From: Mobula hypostoma
Lineage: Eukaryota
Length of the DNA: 64,000 nt
Direction: 5' to 3'
Assembly: GCF_963921235.1 (NCBI RefSeq)
Contig: NC_086097.1
Coordinates: 15,128,001-15,192,000 of the forward strand
Shown: one piece after another, positions 1 to 62,336 of the stretch
Layout of the letters: the number at the start of each line of letters is the position of its first letter
How positions within the stretch are numbered: the stretch's first letter is position 1
The notes under the pieces: model-generated
Database searches by the model: none
What the model saw: the letters and a program-made list of their open reading frames with translations, nothing else
What the model was told of the DNA's origin: nothing
Position numbers and translations under genes: made by a program

Positions 1-1068
1 GAGATGTCAAAACTTCTGTTATTATGTATGGAGAAACTGAGGAAATAGTTACTTCTGTTTGTGGACAGGGCCACAGATTTAACATTTGGGTGTCAGCCAT
101 GGCTATAAGCAGCACTGGGGCCCCACAGGGGACTGTGTTGGCTCCCTTCCTGTTTACCTTGCATACATTAGACTTTAGATACAACACTGAGTCATGTCAT
201 CTGCAGAAATTCTCTGATGACTCTGCAATAGTTCGGTGTATAAAGGGAGGACAGGAGGATGAATACAGGGCCCCGGTGGAGGACTTTGTCAAATGGTGCA
301 AACTGAATCATCTGCAGCTCAACATCACATAGCAAAGGAGATGGTGATGGACTTTAGGAAGACCAAGCCTGCACTGCTCCGTTACTATTGATGGTGAGGA
401 CGTGGATGTGGTGAGGACCTACAAGTACCTGGGGGGCACCTAGATTGCAGACTTGACTGCAGCACCAACATAGAAGCTGTGTACAAAAGAGTCACCTCTA
501 CTTCTTGAGGAGACTGAGGTCCTTTGGATTATGCAGGCCTCTCCTTCACACATTCTAACAATCTGTTGTTGCCAGTATAATCTTCTATGTGGTGGTGTGC
601 TGGGGCAGTGGCATCAACATGGGTGATGCCAACAGGCTCAATAAACTGATTAGAAAGGCTGGCTTTGTTATAGGAGTCAAACCGAACACACTGAAGACTG
701 TGGTAGAACGAAGGACCCTAAGAAAATCCTGGCAATTCTGGACAATGTTTCTCACCCTCTGCATGCAATCCTAGCTGAACAGGGGAGCACTTTTAGTAAT
801 AGACTAAGGTAACTGTGCTACTCCCAAGAGTGCTATATGAGGTTATTCTTACCTTCAGCCATTAGGCTCTATAATGAATCAACCTATAGCTGGAGAAGTG
901 ATGGCCCCGTCCTGTTAGGACTGTTTGTGGTAACTTATTTTTTATTCTTTCTACTTCTCTTCTAATATTTGTATATCTGTGCACTTGTAATGCTACTGTG
1001 ACACTGCAACACACATCAAAGTTGCTGGTGAATGCAGCAGGCCAGGCAGCATCTCTAGGAAGAGGTAC

Positions 1069-1104
1069 AGTCGACGTTTCGGGCCGAGACCCTTCGTCAG
1101 GACT
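1069..1104 (-). ncRNA. Minimal type I hammerhead ribozyme, intact core, in the Penelope terminal repeat
   Basis: Minus strand reads AGUC CUGACGA A GGGU CUCG GCCC GAAA CG UC GACU. This gives stem I AGUC/GACU, the conserved CUGANGA and GAAA boxes, a 4-bp stem II, a palindromic ACGU in place of stem III, and a GUC cleavage triplet. Confidence 0.85.
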
Positions 1105-1797
1105 AACTGAAGGAAGAGCTAGTAAGAGATTTGAAAGTGGGGGGGGGGAGATCCAAAATGATAGGAGAAGACAGGAGGGGGAGGGATGGAGCCAAGAGCT
1201 GGACAGGTGATTGGCAAAAGGGATATGAGAGGATCATGGGACAGGAGGCCCAGGGAGAAGGAAAAGGGGGAAGGGGGGGGAACCCAGAGGATGGGCAAGG
1301 GGTATAGTCAGAGGGACAGAGGGAGAAAAAGGAGAGTGAGAGAAAGAATGTGTGTATATAAATAAATAACGGATGGGGTACGAGGGGGAGGTGGGGCATT
1401 AGTGGACATTAGAGAAAGATGAAGCCACAATCACGTTGGAGGAACAACACCTTATATTCCGTCTGGGTAGCCTCCAACCTGATGGCATGAACATTGACTT
1501 CTCTAACTTCCGCTAATGCCCCACCTCCCCCTCGTACCCCATCTTTTATTTTTATACACACATTCTTTCTCTCACTCTCCTTTTTCTCCCTCTGTCCCTT
1601 TTTCTATACACCCTTTGCCCATCCTCTGGGTTCCCCCCCCCTTTTCCTTCTCCCTGGGCCTCCTGTCCCATGATCCTCTCATATCCCTTTTGCCAATCAC
1701 CTGTCCAGCTTTTGGCTCCATCCCTCCCCCTCCTGTCTTCTCCTATCACTTTGGATCTCCCCCTCTCCCTCCCACTTTCAAAGCTCTTCCTTCAGTT

Positions 1798-1836
1798 AGT
1801 CCCGACGAAGAAGAGTCTCGGCCCGAAACGTCGACT
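1798..1836 (+). ncRNA. Hammerhead ribozyme copy with a mutated core (probably inactive)
   Basis: agtc CCGACGA agaagagtctcggccc GAAACGTC gact: U4 is changed to C and there is an insertion before stem II. Confidence 0.7.
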
Positions 1837-2009
1837 GTACCTCTTCCTAGAGATGCTGCCTGGCCTGCTGCGTTCACCAGCAACTTTGATGTGTGTTGCT
1901 TGAATTTCCAGCATCTGCAGAATTCCTCGTGTTTACATTGTGACACTGTAATTTCCTTTGGGATCAGTAAAGTATCTATCTATCTATCTACAGCTACAAG
2001 GTGGATGTG

Positions 2010-2660
2010 AAACAGAAGAAAGACTGCTCGTGCTGGAAGTCCAGAGCAACACACAAAGTGCAGAGTAATACAACAGATCAGGTAGCGTCGGTGGAAGGAA
2101 TAGAACATTCAAGAATGTGTGGTGAGATCCTTCATCAGGACTGGAAAGAAAAAGGGGAGATTACGGGTATATAAAGGTGGGGGGAAGGGGTTGATCAAAA
2201 GCTTGCTGGTGATAGGAAGAGTTGATAGGCAAATGAGGGAGGGGGAGAGCAAGAATGATGTACAAAGCTGGTAGGTCATAGGTGGTAGGAACAAAGAGCT
2301 GAAGAAGATGGAATCTGGTAGGAGAGGACAGTTGACCATGGAATAAAGTGAGAGGTCAGGAAGGTGGAAGGTGTGTGTGGCAGGCAGATCAAGAGGATGA
2401 GGGAAGGAAAAAAACAAAGGGTTGATGGGATAGAGGAAAACCTGGGGACAGGGGTTGTTTACTGGAAGTTAAAGAAATTGGTGCTCATGCCATCTGATGA
2501 AGACTACCAAGGCAGAATATGAAGTTCTGTTTCTCTGTTCTGCATCGAGCCTCCACTTGGTCATGAACAGACATGTCAGTGTGAGAATGGGAAATGGAGT
2601 TAAAAGGACTGGCCACCAGGAGACGCTGGATGCAACGACAGATGGAAGATAGATGTGAAC
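2010..2660 (-). mobile_element. Old Penelope-like element 3' fragment
   Basis: Degenerate hammerhead box (ccttcatcaggact at about 2129-2142), purine-rich UTR and decayed GIY-YIG C-terminal sequence homologous to 1418-1516. Confidence 0.7.
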
Positions 2661-2828
2661 ATACGAGCGAATAGGATCAGGAGCTTGTGATTCTAGATGT
2701 ATCGAAATAGAATCAACCAACACCTTCAGTAGGTACTTGAAGAGGCACTTTAGGTGAATAATTTGGATGACTACAGGGAAAGAAATGGGGAATTGTAAGA
2801 TGCTATTGATCTACCAGGGGCTGATATA

Positions 2829-3019
2829 CACTCAATGGCCACTTTATTAAGTAGAGCATAGAATAGTACAGCACAGTACAGGCCCTTCCGCCCACAATGT
2901 TGTGCCGACCCTCAAACCCTGCCTCCCATATAAGCCCCCACCTTAGATTCCTCCATATACCTGTCTAGTAGTCTCTTAAACTTCACTACATGAGGTATTT
3001 AGTAAATGGCCTCTCAGTG
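2829..3019. mobile_element. Tc1/mariner-type MITE remnant containing a CR1 3' tail
   Basis: TA-cactcaatggccactttattaagta ... tatttagtaaatggcctctcagtg-TA forms imperfect TIRs with TA flanks. Confidence 0.55.
2853..2989 (-). mobile_element. Young CR1 LINE extreme 3' end
   Basis: Reverse complement is nearly identical to the 3' ends at about 18075-18212, 22310-22452 and 52550-52688. Confidence 0.9.
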
Positions 3020-3235
3020 TATTCTTCCCCTGCTGAAACACCACATTGAGAGCTCCAGATTACTATACACATTCTCACAGATTGGTGAGTACTTTGCAGA
3101 AAACATCTGTTCAATTGGCACGAGTGATCCTAAACTTCCAGTTGGCTACATCTTCAATTCTCCGTCTCACTCTCACTGTCTTTGGCCTCTTACCCTGCTA
3201 CAACAAACAACATCGTAAACTTTGGCAACCATGTA

Positions 3236-3970
3236 TCGAAGTTCCAAGTAAATTGTATTATCAGAGTACATTCGTATATGTCACCAGATACAACCCTGAG
3301 ATACATTCTCCTGCTGGCTTACTCAGCAAATCTATAGCATACTAACCGTAACAGATTCAATGAAAGATCAACCAGAAGACAAGAAACTGTGCAAATGCAA
3401 ATATAAATAAATAATAATAAATAATGAGAACATCAAATAACAAGATAAGGAGTCTTTAAAATGAGATTCTTGGTTGTGGGAACATCTCAATGGATGGGCA
3501 TGTGAGTGTAGTTACCCCCTTTTGTTCAAGAGCCTGATGGTTGAGGGGTAGTAACTGTTCCTGAACCTGGTGGTGTGAGTCCTGAGGCTCTTGTATCTTC
3601 TACCTGATGGCAGCAGCAAGTAAAGAGCATGACCTCAGTGGTGAGGTCTCTAATGATGGATGCTGCTTTCCTACAACAGCATTTCATGTAGATGTGCTCA
3701 ATGGTTAGGAGGGCTTTGCTTGTGAAGTACTGGGGCAAATCCACTACCTTTTGCAGGATTTTCCTTTCAAATGGTGCCCCACACAGACTTCCAATCTGCG
3801 CCTTGTGAGGCATGAAAATGCCCGACGCAGGCCTCTCATGGTCTGAGTCGACGTTCCCTCCCCTTCCTTTCAAAGACATTGGTGTTTCCATACCAGGCCA
3901 TGATGCAGCCAGTCGATACACTCTCCATTACACAGCTATAGAAATTTTGATGACACGCCGAATCTCTGCA
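3236..3970 (-). mobile_element. Rex/Babar-like LINE 3' fragment (GCIxAWYGN...KAASIIxD...LLPSGRRY family)
   Basis: ORFs 3836..4018 and 3526..3921 carry MESVSTGCIMAWYGNT and CCRKAASIIRD. The 3' UTR is shared with many copies in the window. Confidence 0.8.
3772..3863 (+). mobile_element. 5'-truncated tRNA-SINE copy (3' part only) with an 11-bp TSD
   Basis: TTCCTTTCAAA at 3761-3771 and 3864-3874. The insert matches the 3' end of the full SINE at 39296-39535. Confidence 0.85.
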
Positions 3971-4567
3971 GACTCCATGTATCATCTTCAAATGAGGCTT
4001 TTGGGACTCAAAATTCATTCAAAAGTTTCAGATTACCATCCTCTCCAGTTTATATCACTTCTGATGAAAGATCACACTTAATTTCAAAACGTGTAGATGA
4101 ACAATCTGCATTGTAGCTCAGTGTATGTAAATAATCTCAGGAGACACACTAGTCCTTTCACATCTTATGGGTGTGGGAAATGGGCCCAACATAAGCAAGC
4201 AGGGCTATCTCAGATAGACACCTTGGCCAACATGCACAAGTTGGGCCAAAGGGCCTGCTAGGCTGCTGTCTGTCTCGATGACTCCTCTGTTCTGAGCAAT
4301 TAGGGATCCAAACCTGAGGGGCAATGATTATTTCACTGAAATGTACTATGTTCAGCATTCACAACTGTCATGGTCCCGACAGAACAGCCACAGGCATCCA
4401 AGTTTTGGTGCTCCAACTCCCCAGAGTATGGTTAGCCACCAGTATCCGTTTAAGACTCAGACTGCCAATTATTGCCTATCATGTTACTTCATGGAAAAAA
4501 TGAATTTAAAGGCCTCATAGCTGAGCACTCTGCTCAGTGAGTTCTATTTCTGTTTGTGATTTTGCCT

Positions 4568-5330
4568 TCAGATTTCCATAAGATACAGGAGCAGAATTAA
4601 GCCATTTGGCTCCTTGAGTCCACTCTCCCATTTCATCATGAGGATCCAAATATCCTCTCCGCTCCAATCTCCTGCCTTCTCCCCATATCCCTTCGTGCCC
4701 TGACCAATCAAGAATCTATCAACCTCTGCCTTAAGTACACATAAAGACTTGGCCTCCACAGCTGTCTGTAGCAAAGAATTCCACAGATTCACCGCTCTCT
4801 GACTAAAATTCCTCCTCATCTCCATTCTAAAAGGATGCCCCTCTATTCTAAGGCTGTCCTCTGGTCTTAAGACTCTCCCATCACAGGAAACATCCTCTCC
4901 ACATCCACTCTATGAAGGCCTTTCACCATTAAATAGATTTCAATGAGGTCACCCCTTATCCTTCTGAATTCTCGTGAATACAGACCCAGGGCCATAAATG
5001 TTCTTCATATGACAAGCCATTGAATCCCAGAATCATTTTCATCAACCTCCCTTGAACCCTCTGCAGTTTCAGTACATCCTTTCTAAGATCAGGGGCCCCA
5101 AACTGCTCACAATACTCCAAGTGAGGCCTCACCAGACCCTCAACATTACATCCTTGCTTTTATATTCTAGTTCTTGAAATGAATGCTAACATCCTATTTG
5201 CCTTCCTCACCACTGTCTCAACCTGTAAATTACCCTTTAGGGAATCCTGCACAAGGACTCCTAACTCCCCTTGTGCCTCAGACTTTTGTATTTTATCTCC
5301 ATTTAGAAAATAGTCAACCCTTTCATTTCT
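4568..5330 (-). mobile_element. CR1 LINE 3' fragment
   Basis: ORF 4568..4825 EMRRNFSQRAVNLWNSL...FKAEVDRFL-like CR1 ORF2 C-terminus, with upstream decayed LVRPHLEYC. Confidence 0.85.
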
Positions 5331-9221: not shown

Positions 9222-9690
9222 AGATGGATTTTAACTCTGATTCCCATTCCTGTTCCAACGTGTCAGTCCATGGACTCCTCTTGTGCCATGATGAAGCCAC
9301 CCTCAGGGTGGAGGAGCAACACCTTATATTCTGTCTAGGCATCCTCCAACCTGATGGCATGAACATCAAATTCGCCTTCCAGTAAACAAGTTCCACTGCC
9401 TCCCTTCCTCTATTCCTCACTCTGACCTTTTACTTCTTCACACCTGCCTATTGCTTCCCCAGGGTCTCGTCCTCCTCCTTTTCCTCCTACGGTCCACTTT
9501 CCTCTCCTATTAGATTCCTTCTTCTCCAGCCCTTGACCTGTCCCACCCACCTGGCTTCACCTGTCACCTTCCAGCTAGCCTCCTTCCCCTCCCCCACCCC
9601 ACCCATCTTTTTATTCTGGCAGTTCCCCCTTCCTCCTCAGTCATGATGAAGGGTTTACTCTTTCCCATAGATGCTGCCTGACCTACTTTC
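9222..9690 (+). mobile_element. Penelope-like element 3' fragment
   Basis: Encodes DEATLRVEEQHLIFCLGILQPDGMNI, followed by a pyrimidine-rich UTR and a partial hammerhead (agtcatgatgaaggg). Confidence 0.8.
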
Positions 9691-10470: not shown

Positions 10471-10884
10471 AACTGGCACCCCAGGATAAATTTCCAAGCA
10501 GAGATTATCCAAACTATAAACAACAAACGATGTGCTGGAGGAAGTCAGTGACTTTATCAGCATCTTCATGAGTAAAGGAATCGTTGATGTTTCATGCTGA
10601 TATTTTGCAGGACTCCTGTGTCTCCATTATCCAAATTATGATTTAATCCTTGAAGCCCAAGAGTTAAGTGGTGTCGTGATTGAAGTTTTCAGTAGTATGT
10701 TAAGAGGCATTGATTGCTGAGGAGACGGTGGGTGGAGAGCATAGTATGATCATCACAGTTGGTGTTGGTAAGGGGGCTTATTATTGCCACAAGTAACAAG
10801 ATAAAATGTAAAACTTAGTTTTTCAAGCCATCCAAAATATTGAGGTAGGACAAGGGAAAAGCCATAAACAGTGCAGAAACATAA

Positions 10885-11445
10885 ACAGGAGAAATTCTTT
10901 GGATGCTGGAAATTCAGATTAACACACACAAAATACTGGAGGAACTCAGCAGATCAGGCAGCATCCATGGAACTGAATAAAAATCAACTTTTTGGACCGA
11001 GACCCTTCTTCAGGACTGGAAAGAAAGGTGGAAGACGCCAGAATAAAAAGGTGGGGGGTGGGGAAGGAGGATAGATCGGAGGTGATAGGTGAAGCCAGGT
11101 GGGTAGGAGAGATAAAAGGCTGGAGAGGAAGGAGTCTGATTGGAGAGTGGACCATAGGAGAAAGGGAAGGAGGAGGAGGACGAGGTAAGAGGCCAGAGTG
11201 GGGAATAGCAGAAGAGGGGAGGATGGAGAAAATTTTTTTTACTGGAAGGATAAATCAATATTCATACCATCAGGGTGGAGACTACCCAGGTGAAATACAA
11301 GGTGTTGCTCCTTCACCCTGAGGGTGGCCTCCTCTTGGCAAAAGAAGAGGCCAGGGACTGGCATGTCATAATGGGAATGGGAATTCAATTTAAAATGTCT
11401 GGCCACCAGAAAGTTCCTCTTTAGGCAGATGAGAGGAGGTGCAGA
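10885..11445 (-). mobile_element. Penelope-like element 3' fragment
   Basis: ORF 11239..11484 ...VARHFKLNSHSH...EEATLRVKEQHLVFHLGSLHPDGMNID, with a decayed hammerhead at 10982-11017. Confidence 0.85.
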
Positions 11446-18248: not shown

Positions 18249-18362
18249 ATTTTGTGTTGGCTCTTGAAACGGCGGCGGCAGCGGTGACGAATGTGGAGAC
18301 TCGGACTTGTGCGGCGCAGGATACGCCTTACGGATGGCCTTCAGATCACTGGCACTTGACTG
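18249..18362 (-). CDS. Probable internal coding exon (114 nt, phase 0-0) of an unidentified host gene: QSSASDLKAIRKAYPAPHKSESPHSSPLPPPFQEPTQN
   Basis: Acceptor tgtgttcccctctgcag with a tttaac branch-like motif upstream, donor AAT/gtgagt. Length is a multiple of 3, only one of three frames is open, CpG is locally retained, and the sequence is not repeat-derived. Confidence 0.6.
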
Positions 18363-18454
18363 CTGCAGAGGGGAACACATTGCACATGGTTAAAGGAAAG
18401 ACGTTTCCCCCTCCAATGATCCTAACAAATTTATGCAGATAAGCATTTTAACTT

Positions 18455-22634: not shown

Positions 22635-24050
22635 TTCATTGTCCTCTGACTGTACAAATAAACAATCAAACAGAACAACATTCCACTGGACCATGGGGCA
22701 GCCAGAAAACATAAATCACACACAGCACATAAACCAAAATATTACCATGAAGAGTTCATAGAATATAATTCAAAATGCATGTGAAGTCTGCAGAACAAGT
22801 AAACAGTAAACAGTACAGTAAACGATGTCTTGGTGACGAGACCTTGGAGGAGGCAGGGTATTCATCAGTCTCACAGCTTGGGGAAAGAAGCTGTGACCCA
22901 GTCTGGCAGTCCTAGTGCTGATGCTCCTGTACCTCCTTCCAGAAGGTAGAGGATCAAAGAAACAGTGTGATGGGAGGTAGGGATCCTCACAGTGCTTTGG
23001 GCCCTTCACCTGCAATGGCTCCTGGTAAAATGTTACAAATAGGAGGGATAACCCGGTCATCCTCTCAGTCTTATAACTATCCTTTGTAGGGTACTGAGGT
23101 CCAATGCCTTGCAGTTTCCAGACCACACAGTGATGCAGCCTGACAGGGCACTGTCGATGATGCTCCTGCAGAAAGTTGTTAGAATGGGGGCAGGGAGCCT
23201 TATAGGCCACACTCACAACACGCTGGAGGAACTCAGCAGGTCGGGCAGCGTCCGTGGAAACGATCAGTCAACGTTTTGGGCCGGAACCCTTTGTCAGGAC
23301 TGAAGGGGGAAGCGGCAGAGGCCCTATAAAGAAGGTAGGGGGAGGGTGGGAAGGAGAAGGCTGGTAGGTTCCAGGTGAAAAACCAGCAAGGGGAAAGATA
23401 AAGGAGTGGGGGAAGGGAGGCGGGGAGGGGATAGGCAGGAAAAGTGAAGAAGGAATAGGGGAAAGCACAATGGGTAGTAGAAGGAGGTGGAACCATGAGG
23501 GAGGTGATAGGCAGCTGGGGGAGGGGGCAGAGTGAAACTGGGATAGAGGAAGGGAGGGGGAGGGAATTATCAGAAGTTGGAGAATTCAATGTTCATACCA
23601 AGGGACTGGAGACTACCTAGACGATATATAAGGTGTTGCTCCTCCAACCTGAGTTTAGCCTCATCATGGCAGTAGAGGAGGCCATGTATGGACATATCCG
23701 AATGGGAATGGGAAGCAGAGCTGAAGTGGGTGGCAACCGGGAGATCCTGTCTGTTGTGGCGGACGGAGCAGAGGCCTCCATCTCCTCAGGAAGTGTAGGT
23801 GCTGCGGCGCCTTCTTGACTAGTGAGGAGGTGTTGTGAGCTCATCCATTATGTGCAAACCAAGGAACTCTGTGCTCTTCACTCTCTCCACATTGATGTAC
23901 AATGGAGAGTGGTCGACCTGTGCCTTCCTGAAGTCCACAATCATCTCTCATTGAGACTCAGGATGTTGTGATTGCACCACTTGACGAGCCTCTCTACCTC
24001 CTCTCTATAGGCCGACTCATTATCAGTGAGCTTGATGATGCAGTGGAAAC
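22635..24050 (-). mobile_element. Rex/Babar-like LINE fragment split by a Penelope insertion
   Basis: ORF 22770..23216 ...DPLPSGRRYRSISTRTARLGHSFFPQAVRLMN. The sequence resumes upstream at 23772-24050. Confidence 0.75.
23209..23771 (-). mobile_element. Penelope-like element 3' fragment
   Basis: GIY-YIG-like C-terminus (DEAKLRLEEQHLIYRLGSLQSLGMNIEFSNF) on the minus strand, decayed hammerhead at 23266-23301. Confidence 0.85.
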
Positions 24051-32229: not shown

Positions 32230-32445
32230 TGAAAATGCAAAAGATTCTGCAGATGCTGTAAATAATGAGTAACACACACAAAATGCTGGAGGAATTCAGC
32301 AAGTTAGGCAGCATCGATGCAGCAGAATAAACAGTCGTCTTTTCTGGCTGAGACCCTTCATCAGGACTGGAGAGGAAGGGGGCTGAGACAGAATAAGATG
32401 GTGCAAGAGGGAAGGAAGTACAAAAAGGCAGGTGAAACCAGAAGA
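32230..32445 (-). mobile_element. Penelope-like terminal repeat fragment
   Basis: acacacaaaatgctggaggaattcagcaag... and a decayed hammerhead at 32333-32368. Confidence 0.75.
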
Positions 32446-39535: not shown

Positions 39536-40917
39536 CACGTTGCAAGGCTTGATCAGTAAGGCTCATGGCTGTAGACTCATTTTGGGTGACTTTGGGATAC
39601 AATTTGCATGTGTTTCTGGATTCTGGTTACTTGACTTTTTAGTAGTTTTTGAGCTGTTTGATCGGGGCAATCAGTGAAGACTGGCTCTGCGGCCTACAGT
39701 CCGCTAGCTGTATGGAGTTAAATGGAGCTGAACTAAATGTAAAACTCCTGGACTCCAGGTTTGATGTTGATATTCTATATGTTGTTTGCTTGTTTTGTGC
39801 TGTTTGTGCAATTTATTCCGTTTTTCGCACGTTGGGTGTTTGAACATGTTCCATGGTGTTTCTTTGTTTAGTGGCTACCTGCGGGGGCGGGGGGGGGGTG
39901 GTGGTTGAATCTCAGAGTTGCATTCTGTATATATACTTTGAACTTACTGAAGGGTATGGTCCTTATGCAGGCAAGTAAGCTCAGTGCAGAGGGGCAAAAG
40001 GATCAGCACAGATGTGATGGGTCAAGGGGATAGTTTCTGTGCTGTACAACTGTAATGGATTCAAACTCAAAAACGCCAATAGAGTTTGGGATGTTGTGTT
40101 CAGAGGGGGTGAGCTTCGAATTGGAGAAAGGAATGCCGAATTTGAAATGGTTGATATCTCGTCGGCAGTAAGAGATAAAGAGAACTAGATCTAACAGGGT
40201 TTCCTAGAGCAGGAAGACAGTTGAGGACGGAAGCAGGGGTAATCGGTGGGGGGCTGGGGGATCCTTGCCAAAGTATTCCATGTGTGTCTTGATGAAAGGT
40301 CTCAGTCTGAAATGTTGACTGCTTATTTCCCTCCATATATCCTGCCTGACTTGCTGAATTAATCCAGCATTTTGCATGCGTTGCTCAAGACTTCCAGTAT
40401 CTGCAGGATCTTGTGTGTTCAAAAAAAGTGAATATTCTACATGTAAAGTAATTAAGATCACTTGCAAGCTTTAACAGGAGGCTAAGCCCCACTTCCAGCT
40501 TTGTTGCTGGCTGGGGTGGGGTAATCACAGTTCTCCCGCCCCTCATTGCCCAAATTGAAGGTGTGGGAGGGCAGTGAAACTTGCCTGGCTAACTGTGGTC
40601 TTGGAAGGTGGGACCTCAGCAGGCGGTGATTTGAAGTGGGCTGTCGAGGTCCGGTGAAAATTGACCCCCTATTTCAACAACCAGACTGAAAAGTTTGAAC
40701 TCCTTGCCTTGGTTCAAACTCAAAATTTACATTGTGGTCTGCCAGGCAGAGACTGATTGAGCAGTGACTGTCTAAGTGTGTAATATGATCTAACCTCAGG
40801 GTTCATCATACACAGATCTTCACTAAAGCAACACTTTAATTGTTTCTTTCCCTGGGGCGACTCAACAACAACCACTTGTATTTACATCACACCTCTCAAG
40901 TAGTAAAATTCCCAAAT

Positions 40918-41606
40918 GGAACTCAGCAGGTCAGGCAGCATCTATGGAGAGGAATAAATAGTCAGCATTCAGGGTCGAGACACTTCGTCAGGACAGGAGA
41001 AGACGGGGGCAGAAGCCAGAAAAATGAGGTGGGTGGAGGGGAAGGAGTTCATGCTGGTAGGTGATAGGTGGAACCTGAATGAGGAATGGAAAAAGAGAGA
41101 AGTTGCGGGGTGTGGGGGTGAAGGAGAAATTACCGGAAATTAGAGAATTCATTGTTCATGCCATCAGGTTGGAGACTACCCAGACCTCTAACTTCTGACA
41201 ATTTCTCCCTATCCCCCTTCTCCCATTCCCCATCCTGGTTCCCCTGTCATCCCTTCCCTTCTTCTCACCTGCCCATCACCTCACTCCTGTGCACCCTCTC
41301 CTTCCCTTTCTCCCATCTCATCTCCTACCAGATACCTTCTTCAGCCCTTTTTGCTTCCACCCAGCTTCTCATTTCATTTCATCTCCCCTCCCCCTCACCT
41401 GGTCTCTCCTATCACCTGCTGTTTCGTACTCCTTCACCTCCCACCACCTTCTTATTCTGGCTCCTGGCCCCGCCCCCCCACCCTTTCTAGTCCTGCTGAA
41501 GAGTCCTGGTCCGAAACACCAACTGTTTATTCCTTTCCATAGATGCTACCTGACTTGCAGAGTTCCTCCGCCATTTTGTGTGCGCTGCTCTGCTGAATCT
41601 CTTGTG
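40918..41606. mobile_element. Older Penelope-like element with inverted arms
   Basis: 40918-41184 is minus-oriented (hammerhead remnant about 40960-40995, GIY-YIG end). 41185-41606 is plus-oriented (hammerhead remnant about 41489-41524). Confidence 0.75.
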
Positions 41607-50029: not shown

Positions 50030-50500
50030 AAAGCAACGCACACACATAAAATGCTGGAGGAGCTCAGCAGGTCAGGCAGCATCCATGGAAATTAATAAAC
50101 AGTCAACATTTCAGGCCGAGACCCTCAGTCAGGACTGGAAAGGAAGGGGGAAGACGCCAGAATACAAAATGTGGGGGAGTACAAGGAGTACAAGTTAGAA
50201 GATGATAGGTGAAGCCAGGTGAAGGGGGGGGGGCAGGTTGTTGAAGTAAGAAGCTAGGAGGTAATAGGTGGGAAAAGTAAAGGGCTGGAGAAGAAGAAAT
50301 CAGATAGAGGGAGGTGATAGGCAAGTGAGAAGAAGAGGTGGGGGGGTGGCAGAGTGAGGAATTGAAGAAGAGGGAAAAGGAAGGGGCAACAAATTACCGG
50401 AAGTTGGAGAAATCGATGTTCATGCTATCATGTTGGAGGCAACTTTGACGGAATATGAGGTATTGCTTCTCCAATCTGACAATGGCCACATTGTGGTAGG
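50030..50500 (-). mobile_element. Penelope-like element 3' fragment
   Basis: Decayed hammerhead at 50101-50136 and a GIY-YIG C-terminal remnant at about 50395-50495. Confidence 0.8.
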
Positions 50501-51547
50501 ACGCCAAGTAACTATGGAAATAATTGAGTTTTAAATTACCCAGAGGCCTAGCCCATTATTCACCCCCACTGCCCTCTGTGCATAGGAAGCTCTCACAAAA
50601 TACAGTGGCTACTGCTGAGTAGCCAACCAGCATAAAGCTGCATGAGATTCCTGCTTCTTCTTCAAATGAGACCACTATACCGGCTAGAGTTTGGGATTAA
50701 TCAGAGCAGGGATTCCCATCTCCACAAAGACAGATTACCCCCTACCTCCTTAACCCAGCGCCCCAACATGGCCAGTCAGTCCACAACCAGGAGCCCCATC
50801 ACCAGGCACTAACACACCTCACCTTGATCACATAGGACGGTCTGACACATCTCCCCGAGTTTAAACCAGAAAGGAACGAGTAGTGCTCTGAAGAACAGTC
50901 CTTAAAAGAAATTAGGAAAAGTTAAAGATGGAAGTGAGAGAACATGTAAAGAACTGAGACAGACAACAAGATAAGCAAAAGGTTTAGGAAAACCAAAAAC
51001 ACCCAGAGACATTTAAAGGGAAACTACTGAAGATGAAATGTAAGGCAAAAAGGGATTAAAACTATAAGAAACAACGATTAATCTACACTGCTGGTATGCT
51101 GAAACCTGGGTTATTAACTTGGCCAAAGGGAGGTGCAGCCTACCTATGTAATTTAAACTGGCATGAAAAAGCTTGTGTTGACAATGGTGGCATTGATATG
51201 GTTGGACTGCCGATACTTGAAATATGAATTAAAAACTCTAAATACTGGTGAAACTCAGAAGGTCAGGAAACAGAGTTAGTTGTCTCAGGTGGAAGAACTG
51301 GGCTGATCAAAGTTCAAAGTAAATTCATTATCAAAGAATGTATATGTCACATGAGTTTCATTTTCTTTCAGGCATTCACAGGAGAACAAAGACATACAAT
51401 GAAAGACTACACACCAAGACTGACAAGGAACCAATGTGCAAAAGACAAACTGTGCAAATACAAAAAACACAAATAATAATAATGAATAAATAAGTGGGTT
51501 TTTGACAAATACTATTTGTGTTTCTCTTTCCATAGATGCTGACTGTA

Positions 51548-55985: not shown

Positions 55986-57773
55986 ACATGTGGGAGAAAC
56001 CGGAATCAAGGGCTGAAATAGAGGACAGTCACTAATAAGTGCAGCAAGGAATGCGGGAGGAACTGCTGCGGTCAGTGAACAGTGTGGAATGCTCCACTGG
56101 GAGCCAAATAGCCCAGGTGCTTGTAAAGGGAAGCCAGATAACCACAAGAGGGAGGAAGGAATAGAAGGTCAAGTTGATGGGGTGAGAAGAAGGAGGGTGG
56201 GAGGAGGCCAGTATGCAGGATAAACACCAGCAGGCACCCATGATCAAATGGCCCATTTCTGTGCTGTTTGTGCTGTGTAATCAGACTGGAAACTTTCTCG
56301 TTTTTGTTTTAGGCTCCCACCCAATGCTAAAGAAAAGCCATGCTTTTTCTTTCTTGAACAATTTACCACATGGATTCGCTCATCCCCACCTACGCTGGAT
56401 CCCATTCTCCTAATCTCACCCAGAGCTCCACAGAGCTGTTTCTTCATGGAGTATTCCTGCAATATCTTCCAGAAAGACATTATCAAATCAGTTTTCCACT
56501 GCCGTCATAGCAATGGCTTCTGGATTGATAATTCTAGACAACAAAGATTTTGCTTGTTGAATATTTTTGGGTATATCTTATGGATTTTGGACTGCTGTTC
56601 GTGAAAATCGCCATGAGATTCCCTATCACACACCATTGTTTTGAAATTGCTTATATTTGTTATTTCAATTCATAATTCATGCCTCACACCCACTAATACC
56701 TTGCTGCCTTCCAAACGAGTATGCTTTCCAGGAAAGCCTTTAGGGGGCGATAAATTCAAGTCATACTTCTAGGGGTACTGAGACCATAAGACATAAGAGC
56801 AGGATTAAGCTATTCGGCCCATCACATCTGCTCTGCCATGCCATCTGGGCTGATTTATTATCCCTCTCATTCTGAGGCTGAACCCAGTTCATTTCAATCT
56901 CGAGTGAATGATCAAACTTGACCTTACTGATTTACATGGAATGAGTGGGAGCAGCAGAAAATGTTTCCTCAACATCCACCCAGATATTTCAGGGTTATAT
57001 CTGTATATCTGCAGAAGAATGAGGGGGGGATCTCATTGAAAATATTGAAAGGCTGAGATAGAGTGGATGTGGACAGGATGTTTCCCATAGTGGATGAGTG
57101 TAGGAGCAGAAGGCACAGTCTCAAAATAGAGGGATGATGAGAAATTTCTTTAGCTAGTGAGTAGTAAATCTGAGGAATTCATTTTCAGGGCATCAAAGAT
57201 TTTGGGGAGAAAGCAGAATGGGGTTGAAAGAGATAATAAATCAGCCATGATGGATTGACAGAAAACCCGATGGGACAAATAGCCTAATTCTGCTCCAATG
57301 TCTTATGGTCTTTATGGTCTTACAAAGCTCTTCACTGAGTGTTGAACAAAGAACCACGGGTTGTCTCATTTCTCCACAAACCCAGAACTTGATGGTTAAG
57401 TCCACAACCCCTTGAATTAGCATCCACTTGCTCCACAACCACTGATGCAAGTGACCCAAGTTTTTTCCTAATTCTCATGCAACACACAATGCATAAAAGA
57501 TAGCTGCGTACATTGATGGATGACCGTCGTTAAGCAGATGAAATGCCAAGCAGTCACACGCTTAATTGAATGACTTGACCCAGGCTGCATTCTGATAGTT
57601 GGGTAATTGCTTACCCTGGGAAAGAAGTAAAAAAAAACAAAACAATAGATACCAAGACTGTAGGAAGCCAGCAGATCATAGCAGTAAAAACCATAAAAGC
57701 AGTAACACTGAGCAGCAGTCTATAAACATTACCCACAGATTTACGTTAAAGAGCTAAAACAATTTCACTACGT

Positions 57774-57871
57774 GAGTCCTGACGAAGGGTCTCGGCCTGA
57801 AACGTCGACTGTACCTCTTCCTAGAGATGCTGCCTGGCCTGCTGCGTTCACCAGCAACTTTGAGGTGTGTT
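57774..57871 (+). mobile_element. 98-bp Penelope-derived mini insertion (hammerhead plus short 3' tail) with a 7-bp TSD
   Basis: ACTACGT at 57767-57773 and 57872-57878. The insert matches about 1798-1897. Confidence 0.8.
57775..57810 (+). ncRNA. Minimal type I hammerhead ribozyme, intact core
   Basis: AGUC CUGACGA A GGGU CUCG GCCU GAAA CG UC GACU; the closing pair of stem II is G-U. Confidence 0.8.
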
Positions 57872-57894
57872 ACTACGTTGACTATGCAGATTGT

Positions 57895-60280: not shown

Positions 60281-62336
60281 TGTTGGACCAGAGGGCCTGC
60301 TGTCATGCTGTATGATTCTATGACATATGACTTCAATACCAAAAAAATTAATATTTTTGAGACATGATTCCCTGAGCCATGTTTTTATGCTGTAGTCATG
60401 CTACACTAGATCACGTAGCAAAAATGCTGAGGAAAAGCTAAATGCTGACTCCTAAAGAAGGGTCTCAGCACAAAACGTCCTCTACTTATTCATCTCCATA
60501 GATGCTGCCTGACCTGCTGGGATCCTCCAGCATTTTGTGGGTGCTGCTTTGTGGAAAAACTGAGTTGCATCTGACTCAACAGATGTTTTATAACTGTTCA
60601 GTGATTCTTGATTCTTTTGTTTTTTTAAATTTTGTATTCCCAGCAGCCACAGCATTTCAGTTCTGGAATTTTCCTTTGGGGCTGGACATCCTTATCCAAA
60701 ACAACGTGTAAAAATTGAAAATAACAAAAGCATAGAATTCCACCGCAGCAAGTGCCAGTCCACACAGCAAACAGCAATACCAACTTGTCAGGCCCATGCA
60801 TAAACTGCTCTATGGTTTGGAAGTACCAGCGTGCAATTCCTTGATGAATTACATTGCTTTGCAAGCTAAGGAGGGAGAAGAGAAGGCAAATTATTTAATC
60901 GCCATCAGGGAATCTGTCACCTTTACCTTCAAGTTTGAGACTCTGGCCCCCAAAACCGTGCCGCCCTATGCTATGGAGGAATCTTTACTGATGTATATGC
61001 AGAAAATGTTTCCTCTGTGAAGGACCATTTTTTAAAAATTAGTGGTGGCCCATTTAACACAGACTTTTTTGCTTGGAGGTTAATTCCATTTTCTGTACAT
61101 TCATGTGCCCATCCAAGACCCTCTTGAATGCTCCTATAATATCTGCCTCTACCAGCACCCCCAGCAGTGCATTCTCGGCACCCACCACCCTCAGTATAAA
61201 AAAACTTGCTCTGCACATCTTCCCCTGAACATACCCCTTCTCACTTCAAGTGCACGTCCTCTGGTATTCGGCATTTCAGTCCAAGATTGAAAAACAGATT
61301 GTTGATAGGCCAAGAAGCGAAAGGTTACGGGGGTAGGTGGGAATGCAGAGATGTGGTTACAATTGGGTCAACTGTGATGGCATTGAATGGTAGAACAAGC
61401 CTGAGGGGCCAAATGGCCTGGTCCTGTTGCCAATTTTTACATTTCCATGTTTCTGTTGAGAGAATTGTGTTCAGCATCATTGCTGTGAGGCCATTCTCGT
61501 CTTCCAGCCCAAGCCTCCTTATTAACATAAGGGAAAGGTTGGAGACGGAGACTAAAAGTGCTCGGCTTTAAAAGTAACTTTTACCTTAAGAACTGTATCC
61601 TATCACAGATATTCCCTCTGTTCTCTTGACTCTGCCTTTCTCTTCAACACAGAATGCAGCGTCTACAGTTTTTTTTGCATCAGGAGGAACAACTGCTCCC
61701 ATGACAAAATTGTCAGCTGCTAAAGTTGCTTTCTTTGGCTTGGATGGGGAACACCCAATTAGCCTACCAAGGCTGTATGAGAATCTAAGAGCAACACTCA
61801 CCCTCTCTGCTCTCTGAGCATATAAGAAAATAAGGAGCAGAACCAGGAGAAGGCCATTCAGCCCCTTGTACTGTTCCATCATTCAATATGGTGGCTGATC
61901 TCTTGCTACAGAACCACCTCCAAGCACTAACCTTAATATCATGCAATCAAATCATAACTGTCTTGAAAGTACTTGGTGACTGAGCATCTACAGAGTAAAG
62001 AATTCCAAAGACCCCCCCCCCCCCTGGGAAGAGATCTTCGGTCATCCCAGTCCTGAATTCCTGACCCCTTCATTTGTGACCATTACTCCTGCTTCCGGGC
62101 ACCCCAGGGAAAACAACACCCCTACATCTACCATCTCCATTACTCCCCTTAATAATTACACACAAGCTCATAAACACACACTCACTACACACACACACAC
62201 ACACAAAACACATGACTATGCACAATTAGATACAAACACACAAAACTACGCACATCATTAAGAATATGCAAAACCATAAACAGGTAGAAGTAGACACACA
62301 GATCACGTTACATACACACAGATCACATGCATATAC

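Follow-up and report, generated by a model that had tools for sequence, protein, structure and literature searches.

What was inserted near the left end of this stretch of DNA, how was it placed there, and does it matter to the gene around it? The window, i.e., the whole stretch analyzed, comprises 64,000 nt of Mobula hypostoma (GCF_963921235.1, NC_086097.1:15,128,001-15,192,000, forward strand). A sequence-only reading had described at 997-1948 a Penelope-like element (PLE) with inverted arms, each ending in a hammerhead ribozyme, and had proposed that transcripts through it fold into a long hairpin. Our analysis confirmed that this insert structure is real and had been correctly described. 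The features are collected in Table 1.

Table 1. Features of the insert, its target, and the host exon in the window
Feature	Position	Strand	Remarks
Decayed 3' part of LINE	1-996	+	ORF end at ~960, then 3' UTR; 50-60% tblastn identity to RVT_1+ALKBH8_N ORF
Left TSD, TGTGACACTG	997-1006	+	Single copy in 274 paralogous LINE ends
Inverted 5'-truncated PLE copy (pLTR/3' UTR)	1006-1417	-	Ends at short, tail-less end, the equivalent of 1899
Minimal type I hammerhead, intact core	1068-1104 (1104-1068)	-	Left arm
Last 32 codons and stop of PLE GIY-YIG endonuclease	1418-1516	+	Includes the 82-bp spacer
Right arm, PLE 3' UTR/pLTR of forward copy	1499-1899	+	
Mutated hammerhead	1798-1836	+	U4C at 1803; 3-nt insertion in stem II
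PLE tail	1900-1938	+	At right end only; family end at ~1934, plus 4 nt
Right TSD, TGTGACACTG	1939-1948	+	
Remaining LINE 3' UTR and (TATC)n tail	1949-1990	+	91-98% identity to 10/10 empty-site loci
CCDC85C exon upstream of the 34-kb intron with the insert	18249-18365	-	100% protein identity to ray CCDC85C

Structure of the insert and its target

The insert occupies positions 1007-1938 (932 bp), and the perfect 10-bp target-site duplication (TSD) claimed for it was found as TGTGACACTG at 997-1006 and 1939-1948. Base 1006 (G) fits the TSD and the arm alike, which amounts to 1-nt microhomology. The two arms aligned as reverse complements; the local alignment, which entered the spacer by about 25 columns, counted 400 matched and 13 mismatched positions and 40 columns with gaps. 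In the stretch that corresponds to 1507-1899, 368/381 aligned bases (96.6%) were identical between the arms, and several short indels were present. The spacer measures 82 bp and lies between the arm parts 1338-1416 and 1499-1577. The arms had been given as about 400 bp long; their inverted arrangement stood, and the length needed correction on the right side, where the arm runs 35-39 bp past the mirror point with a PLE tail that the inverted copy does not have. The insert consists of a forward 5'-truncated copy (1418-1938) preceded by the inverted truncated copy (1006-1417). The ends of copies of this family form two clusters, at ~1889-1907 and ~1927-1938, and since the left arm ends in the former and the right arm in the latter, positions 1900-1938 were identified as the PLE tail.

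The flanks agreed with the reported location inside a LINE 3' UTR, as a decayed LINE reverse transcriptase (RT) ORF precedes the insert, and a (TATC)n tail that begins at ~1973 follows it. This LINE is putatively of the Rex1/Babar type, from the RT plus ALKBH8_N/DUF1891 domain pair of a related ORF and from its microsatellite tail. The part at 1-996 showed 78-94% identity to 10/10 empty-site loci. Moreover, a string representing the empty site, with only one 10-mer, occurred 274 times genome-wide, with 0 occurrences of the reversed control; these single-copy paralogous sites indicate that the 10-bp duplication was made by the insertion. Contigs from four runs contained joints and loose ends that skip the insert (region 880-2060), and these were rejected as an orthologous empty site because they are paralogous LINE ends. 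Paralogous copies dominated the contigs in this region, so that the lack of any listed piece across the locus and of any listed A>G site carries no information on editing or expression.

Identity of the element

The spacer had been read as holding a GIY-YIG-like C-terminus. Taken alone, the 32-aa spacer peptide gave no match in Pfam. The peptide (1418-1513) was identical at 30/32 positions to the C-terminus of a 679-aa ORF with RT and GIY-YIG domains in another copy (L032:2018-4054), which upheld both this claim and the PLE identity of the insert. Within the 679-aa frame, RVT_1 was matched with an E value of 2.5e-5 and GIY-YIG with 6e-4, both below the Pfam gathering score. This RT-EN frame is uninterrupted, and the arms of the same copy are 98% identical, suggesting recent activity of the family.

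Three features of EN+ PLEs were found, i.e., a single ORF with RT and C-terminal GIY-YIG, an inverted pLTR with a tail, and a short TSD. In addition, L032, L038, and L040 carry a CX4CX2C linker that precedes the GIY-YIG motif. An RT-EN linker of the form CX2-5CxxC is described as a mark of Neptune or Nematis PLEs (PMC8557442), and Neptune PLEs are among those reported from fishes (PMC4209133). The insert is thus probably a Neptune-type PLE, with the choice between Neptune and Nematis made by known host range, as the linker is common to both. A literature search limited to titles and the opening of abstracts returned no paper on this ray PLE family, and the family may already be catalogued.

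Hammerhead motifs

The hammerheads of both arms are minimal motifs without helix III. The left one was intact on the minus strand, as had been claimed, with its core at 1104-1068. From stem I (4 bp) it continues through CUGACGA, one additional A, stem II (also 4 bp), and GAAA to a palindromic ACGU, and its GUC site is at 1075-1073. The right one, on the plus strand, showed the U4C change at 1803 and the 3-nt stem II insertion already noted for it. The left motif carries the CUGANGA/GAAA/NUH core, whereas the U4C change takes the right motif outside it. Both core boxes are kept in 25 of 30 other copies. The right hammerhead is a decayed copy.

An Rfam scan of positions 1-5000 (E ≤ 5) matched no hammerhead family. 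The only matches at this threshold were the miRNA hairpins MIR408 and MIR2118, below the gathering score, and these were attributed to the inverted repeat. As Rfam was silent, the hammerheads were called from the motif itself and from the description of minimal hammerheads (min-HHRs) of metazoan PLEs by Cervera and de la Pena 2014 (PMC4209133), which includes traits as found in the left hammerhead and pairs on opposite strands 100-700 bp apart. Folded in isolation, the hammerheads had minimum free energies no better than those of shuffles (z -0.74, -0.84, and 0.09), and a covariation scan of the window and all loci gave only near-identical variants and no covariation. Helix II has 4 bp here versus the 7-8 bp given for Schistosoma in PMC4209133, and the right copy here is mutated. 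In the experiments described there, a single min-HHR motif showed no detectable cleavage, and dimers showed low cleavage.

Predicted hairpin and burial of the ribozyme

The predicted folds agreed with the long hairpin proposed from the sequence. The element folded with -804 kcal/mol, compared with -304 to -325 for eight dinucleotide shuffles. We then considered the minus-strand RNA from 2100 to 850 by MFE and pair probabilities, an equilibrium prediction in which 382/411 left-arm bases were paired with the right arm in the MFE structure. The predicted duplex contained uninterrupted helices of 74, 60, 51, and 47 bp. All bases of the hammerhead were paired with the antisense arm (P 0.99-1.0); the helices of the ribozyme, at 0.70-0.78 in isolation, dropped to a probability of 0.0 in this context. 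The antisense arm precedes the intact hammerhead in the order of CCDC85C transcription, and the fold predicts that the arm duplex completely hides this hammerhead in the CCDC85C pre-mRNA. Given this predicted burial and the inactivity of the min-HHR monomer published in PMC4209133, cleavage of the host transcript by the intact hammerhead seems unlikely. The hairpin, once formed, would leave no folded ribozyme, so that the two suggestions of the sequence-only reading, a hairpin and a ribozyme in the host transcript, oppose each other. Processing of the predicted hairpin by ADAR or into siRNAs is plausible from established dsRNA biology.

Abundance of the family and structure of other copies

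Exact matches in the 3.48-Gb genome numbered 9,136 for a 62-mer from the spacer and 5,694 for a 27-mer from the tail, figures that are to be read as 'thousands' because the strand counts were exactly equal (4568/4568 and 2847/2847), possibly as an effect of the tool. Large inverted pairs came from a non-random set: ten regions with closely paired matches were taken from the first 100 listed on contig 1, L029 was added, and L022 was excluded, as its forward arm is interrupted. In each of the 11 other large pairs of this set with both ends visible, a tailed end was combined with a short one, and the flank repeats, read by eye, measured about 9-14 nt. The outer-arm identity, measured in eight large pairs, ranged from 96.4 to 99.5%.

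A second sample consisted of 30 tail-anchored loci, and 16 of them had a reversed end within 1.5 kb. In 13 of the 16, a 12-15-nt flank repeat (TSD plus microhomology) was found together with a short end at 1889-1905, and the three remaining flagged loci had no TSD. Random flank pairs reached 12 nt in only 0.3% of 2,000 draws. Ten of the 13 were small palindromes of at most 240 bp with the center at the 5' edge of the hammerhead. In another set of 30 loci, to which a simple boundary caller was applied, 22 gave no flank repeat of at least 7 nt, and among these the 5' end lay beyond the locus in three, and the 3' end was missing in one. Short ends with a TSD and no inverted partner were present in L004, L023, L025, and L026.

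The small TSD-bounded palindromes, 136-238 bp long, are L056, L058, L059, L063, L066, L068, L070, L080, L081, and L082 (G000:C1), and the hammerhead edge at which their inversion centers fall lies 5' of the cleavage site. Truncation at that same edge was also seen in solo copies (L075 and the one at window position 57775). Stalling of the RT at a structure and the 5' end of the RNA are candidate causes of this truncation hotspot. Hammerhead cleavage was discarded as a cause, as the breaks lie ~20-35 nt upstream of the GUC site. The family includes at least two subfamilies, which differ in the tail end and the 3' UTR, and paired arms were always of one subfamily. Several bases in common with the target are frequent at the short end, and at the tailed end a few additional bases frequently precede the TSD.

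Insertion mechanism

The locus is very probably the product of one insertion event of a high-copy Neptune-type PLE, truncated at the 5' end, in which an inverted copy without the tail stands beside a forward copy that has it; the insert is likely neutral and decaying. The mechanism that we propose draws on PLE biochemistry and on the other copies. The GIY-YIG endonuclease would introduce staggered nicks 10 bp apart in the LINE 3' UTR, and each 3'-OH would prime a cDNA with the element RNA as template, starting in one case at the distal (tail) site and in the other in the proximal start region at ~1890-1905. Both cDNAs would stop early and join head to head, and repair would fill in the TSD. 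The hammerheads would be passengers of the pLTR, and the hairpin would be incidental dsRNA, one of probably thousands in the genome.

Within this scheme, priming from both nicked target strands is the step we favor on the basis of the other copies, and we regard it as reasonably probable. The inverted arm could instead have been generated by fold-back (self-priming) of one cDNA, with later asymmetric deletions at the center accounting for the spacer and for the unequal arm lengths. Palindromes are known to lose central sequence, and at this locus the tailed copy contains the full extent of the tail-less arm. The tailed arm is also the longer arm in 6/11 of the large pairs, which, like this locus, fold-back explains equally well, and the ten inverted inserts of at most 240 bp centered at the hammerhead 5' edge, some with short shared junction words, point in the same direction. 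Self-priming has been proposed for PLEs (PMC3846280). However, in the other 5/11 large pairs, it is the tail-less arm that extends further in the 5' direction, by 112 to ~1,800 nt. Both arms of these pairs thus have private sequence, and neither is a plain copy of the other; fold-back would need an extra deletion in every one of them. The short-ended copies that stand alone with a TSD also argue against fold-back, as they make it likely that cDNA synthesis has an independent start at the short end. In agreement, purified PLE protein is described as nicking and extending both strands in vitro, with reverse transcription starting at two sites that bound the tail (PMC11167929); for PLE integration, that paper leaves the choice between fold-back and double priming open. 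Collectively, these observations make fold-back rather unlikely, and double priming remains our preferred route.

A further possibility, that the insert is one member of an amplified family of non-autonomous palindromes mobilized as a whole (MITE-like or retrozyme-like), is hardly credible. Inverted inserts are frequent, at 13/30 of the tail-anchored loci, but the inner junction of this locus, searched exactly apart from three degenerate positions, had one match in 3.48 Gb, the locus itself, and the junctions differed between all pairs examined. The uniqueness of the inner junction points to a single insertion event. Furthermore, the two hammerheads are inverted here, with no tandem array as described for non-LTR retrozymes (bioRxiv 10.64898/2026.07.22.740005). 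A wider version of the double-priming account can be put forward tentatively, at slightly less than even chances: the copies would record double priming, and the antisense arm would lock the hammerhead and seed thousands of intronic dsRNA hairpins, possibly feeding editing or small-RNA silencing of the family.

The host gene CCDC85C

The exon at 18249-18365 was 100% identical at the protein level to CCDC85C of Mobula and Hypanus, and contigs from 4/4 putative RNA runs covered it with 0-1 differences. The gene spans G000:C1:15105864-15394138, and its next exon is at G000:C1:15112177-15112281, starting at 15112281. The insert lies mid-way in the 34-kb intron between both exons, its distances to the two splice sites being 16.3 and 16.7 kb. 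The earlier statement that a putative host exon lies on the strand of the intact ribozyme was right as to the strand, and the gene is CCDC85C; the exon ends at 18365 and not at 18362.

The insert might act on its host if the hairpin were edited by ADAR or diced, or if the hammerhead cleaved the transcript, altering CCDC85C splicing or level. The intron is transcribed on the strand of the intact ribozyme, the four predicted helices are long, and ADAR editing of such long duplexes is expected from dsRNA biology. Nevertheless, we consider an action on the host very improbable, as the distance to either splice site exceeds 16 kb, and the ribozyme is predicted to be buried and belongs to a type whose monomer did not cleave in the assays of PMC4209133. 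Another copy with an intact core is found in a neighboring intron, along with several more remnants. In addition, the arms show no special conservation, as the left arm is up to 96.7% identical to unrelated copies, versus the 96.6% between the arms. The downstream exon is also skipped in skate and horn-shark isoforms, species that are unlikely to share so young an insert, and for this reason a link between the insert and exon skipping was rejected. Given the unremarkable arm identity and the skipping in skates and a shark, there was no sign of a host role. The special significance that had been implied for the locus was likewise not supported, as its layout is the published PLE pattern and recurs throughout the genome, and the hammerhead is predicted to be buried.

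Other sequences of interest were observed in the gene. At 57772-57874 of the window, there is a solo short-ended stub of the PLE family of the insert that begins with stem I of a hammerhead; its core, on the plus strand, is intact, and the stub has a flank repeat of 7 nt. Older, diverged PLE remnants occur in CCDC85C in both orientations, at 2010-2661 (minus strand), 9230-9376, 10882-11421, 23554-23773, 32244-32362, 40078-41185, 50040-50486, and 60450-60549, one of which begins ~60 bp to the right of the insert. An alternative CCDC85C exon was recognized at 50823-50900 (minus strand), identical at 22/26 positions to a segment of sawfish isoform X1.

Comparison with known systems

An inverted pLTR with a 31-bp tail on one arm and TSDs of 8-10 bp has been described by Arkhipova et al. 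2013 (PMC3846280), and the layout of an inverted copy plus tail is given as typical in Figure 2 of Craig et al. 2021 (PMC8557442). The canonical EN+ PLE insertions outlined in such accounts share with this locus the head-to-head pLTRs, the 30-40-bp tail at one end, and the 5' truncation; the TSD is 8-10 bp there and 10 bp here, and entry into another non-LTR element, as observed here, is also among the features given for them. Unlike them, this insertion is found in a ray, belongs to another family, and retains only 32 codons of the ORF. The locus is an ordinary further copy of the published PLE insertion pattern, which is common in this genome. By itself it carries little weight, being one among thousands of copies. 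The many young TSD-bounded inverted inserts could help to decide between fold-back and double priming, and the family could show the amount of repeat-derived dsRNA in the ray transcriptome.

A second likeness is with the twin priming of LINE-1, reportedly described by Ostertag and Kazazian in 2001. In both systems, the two target strands likely prime cDNA, and an inverted 5' segment lies within the TSD. The difference is in what is inverted: LINE-1 inversions are non-overlapping pieces of one RNA, whereas here both arms duplicate one sequence.
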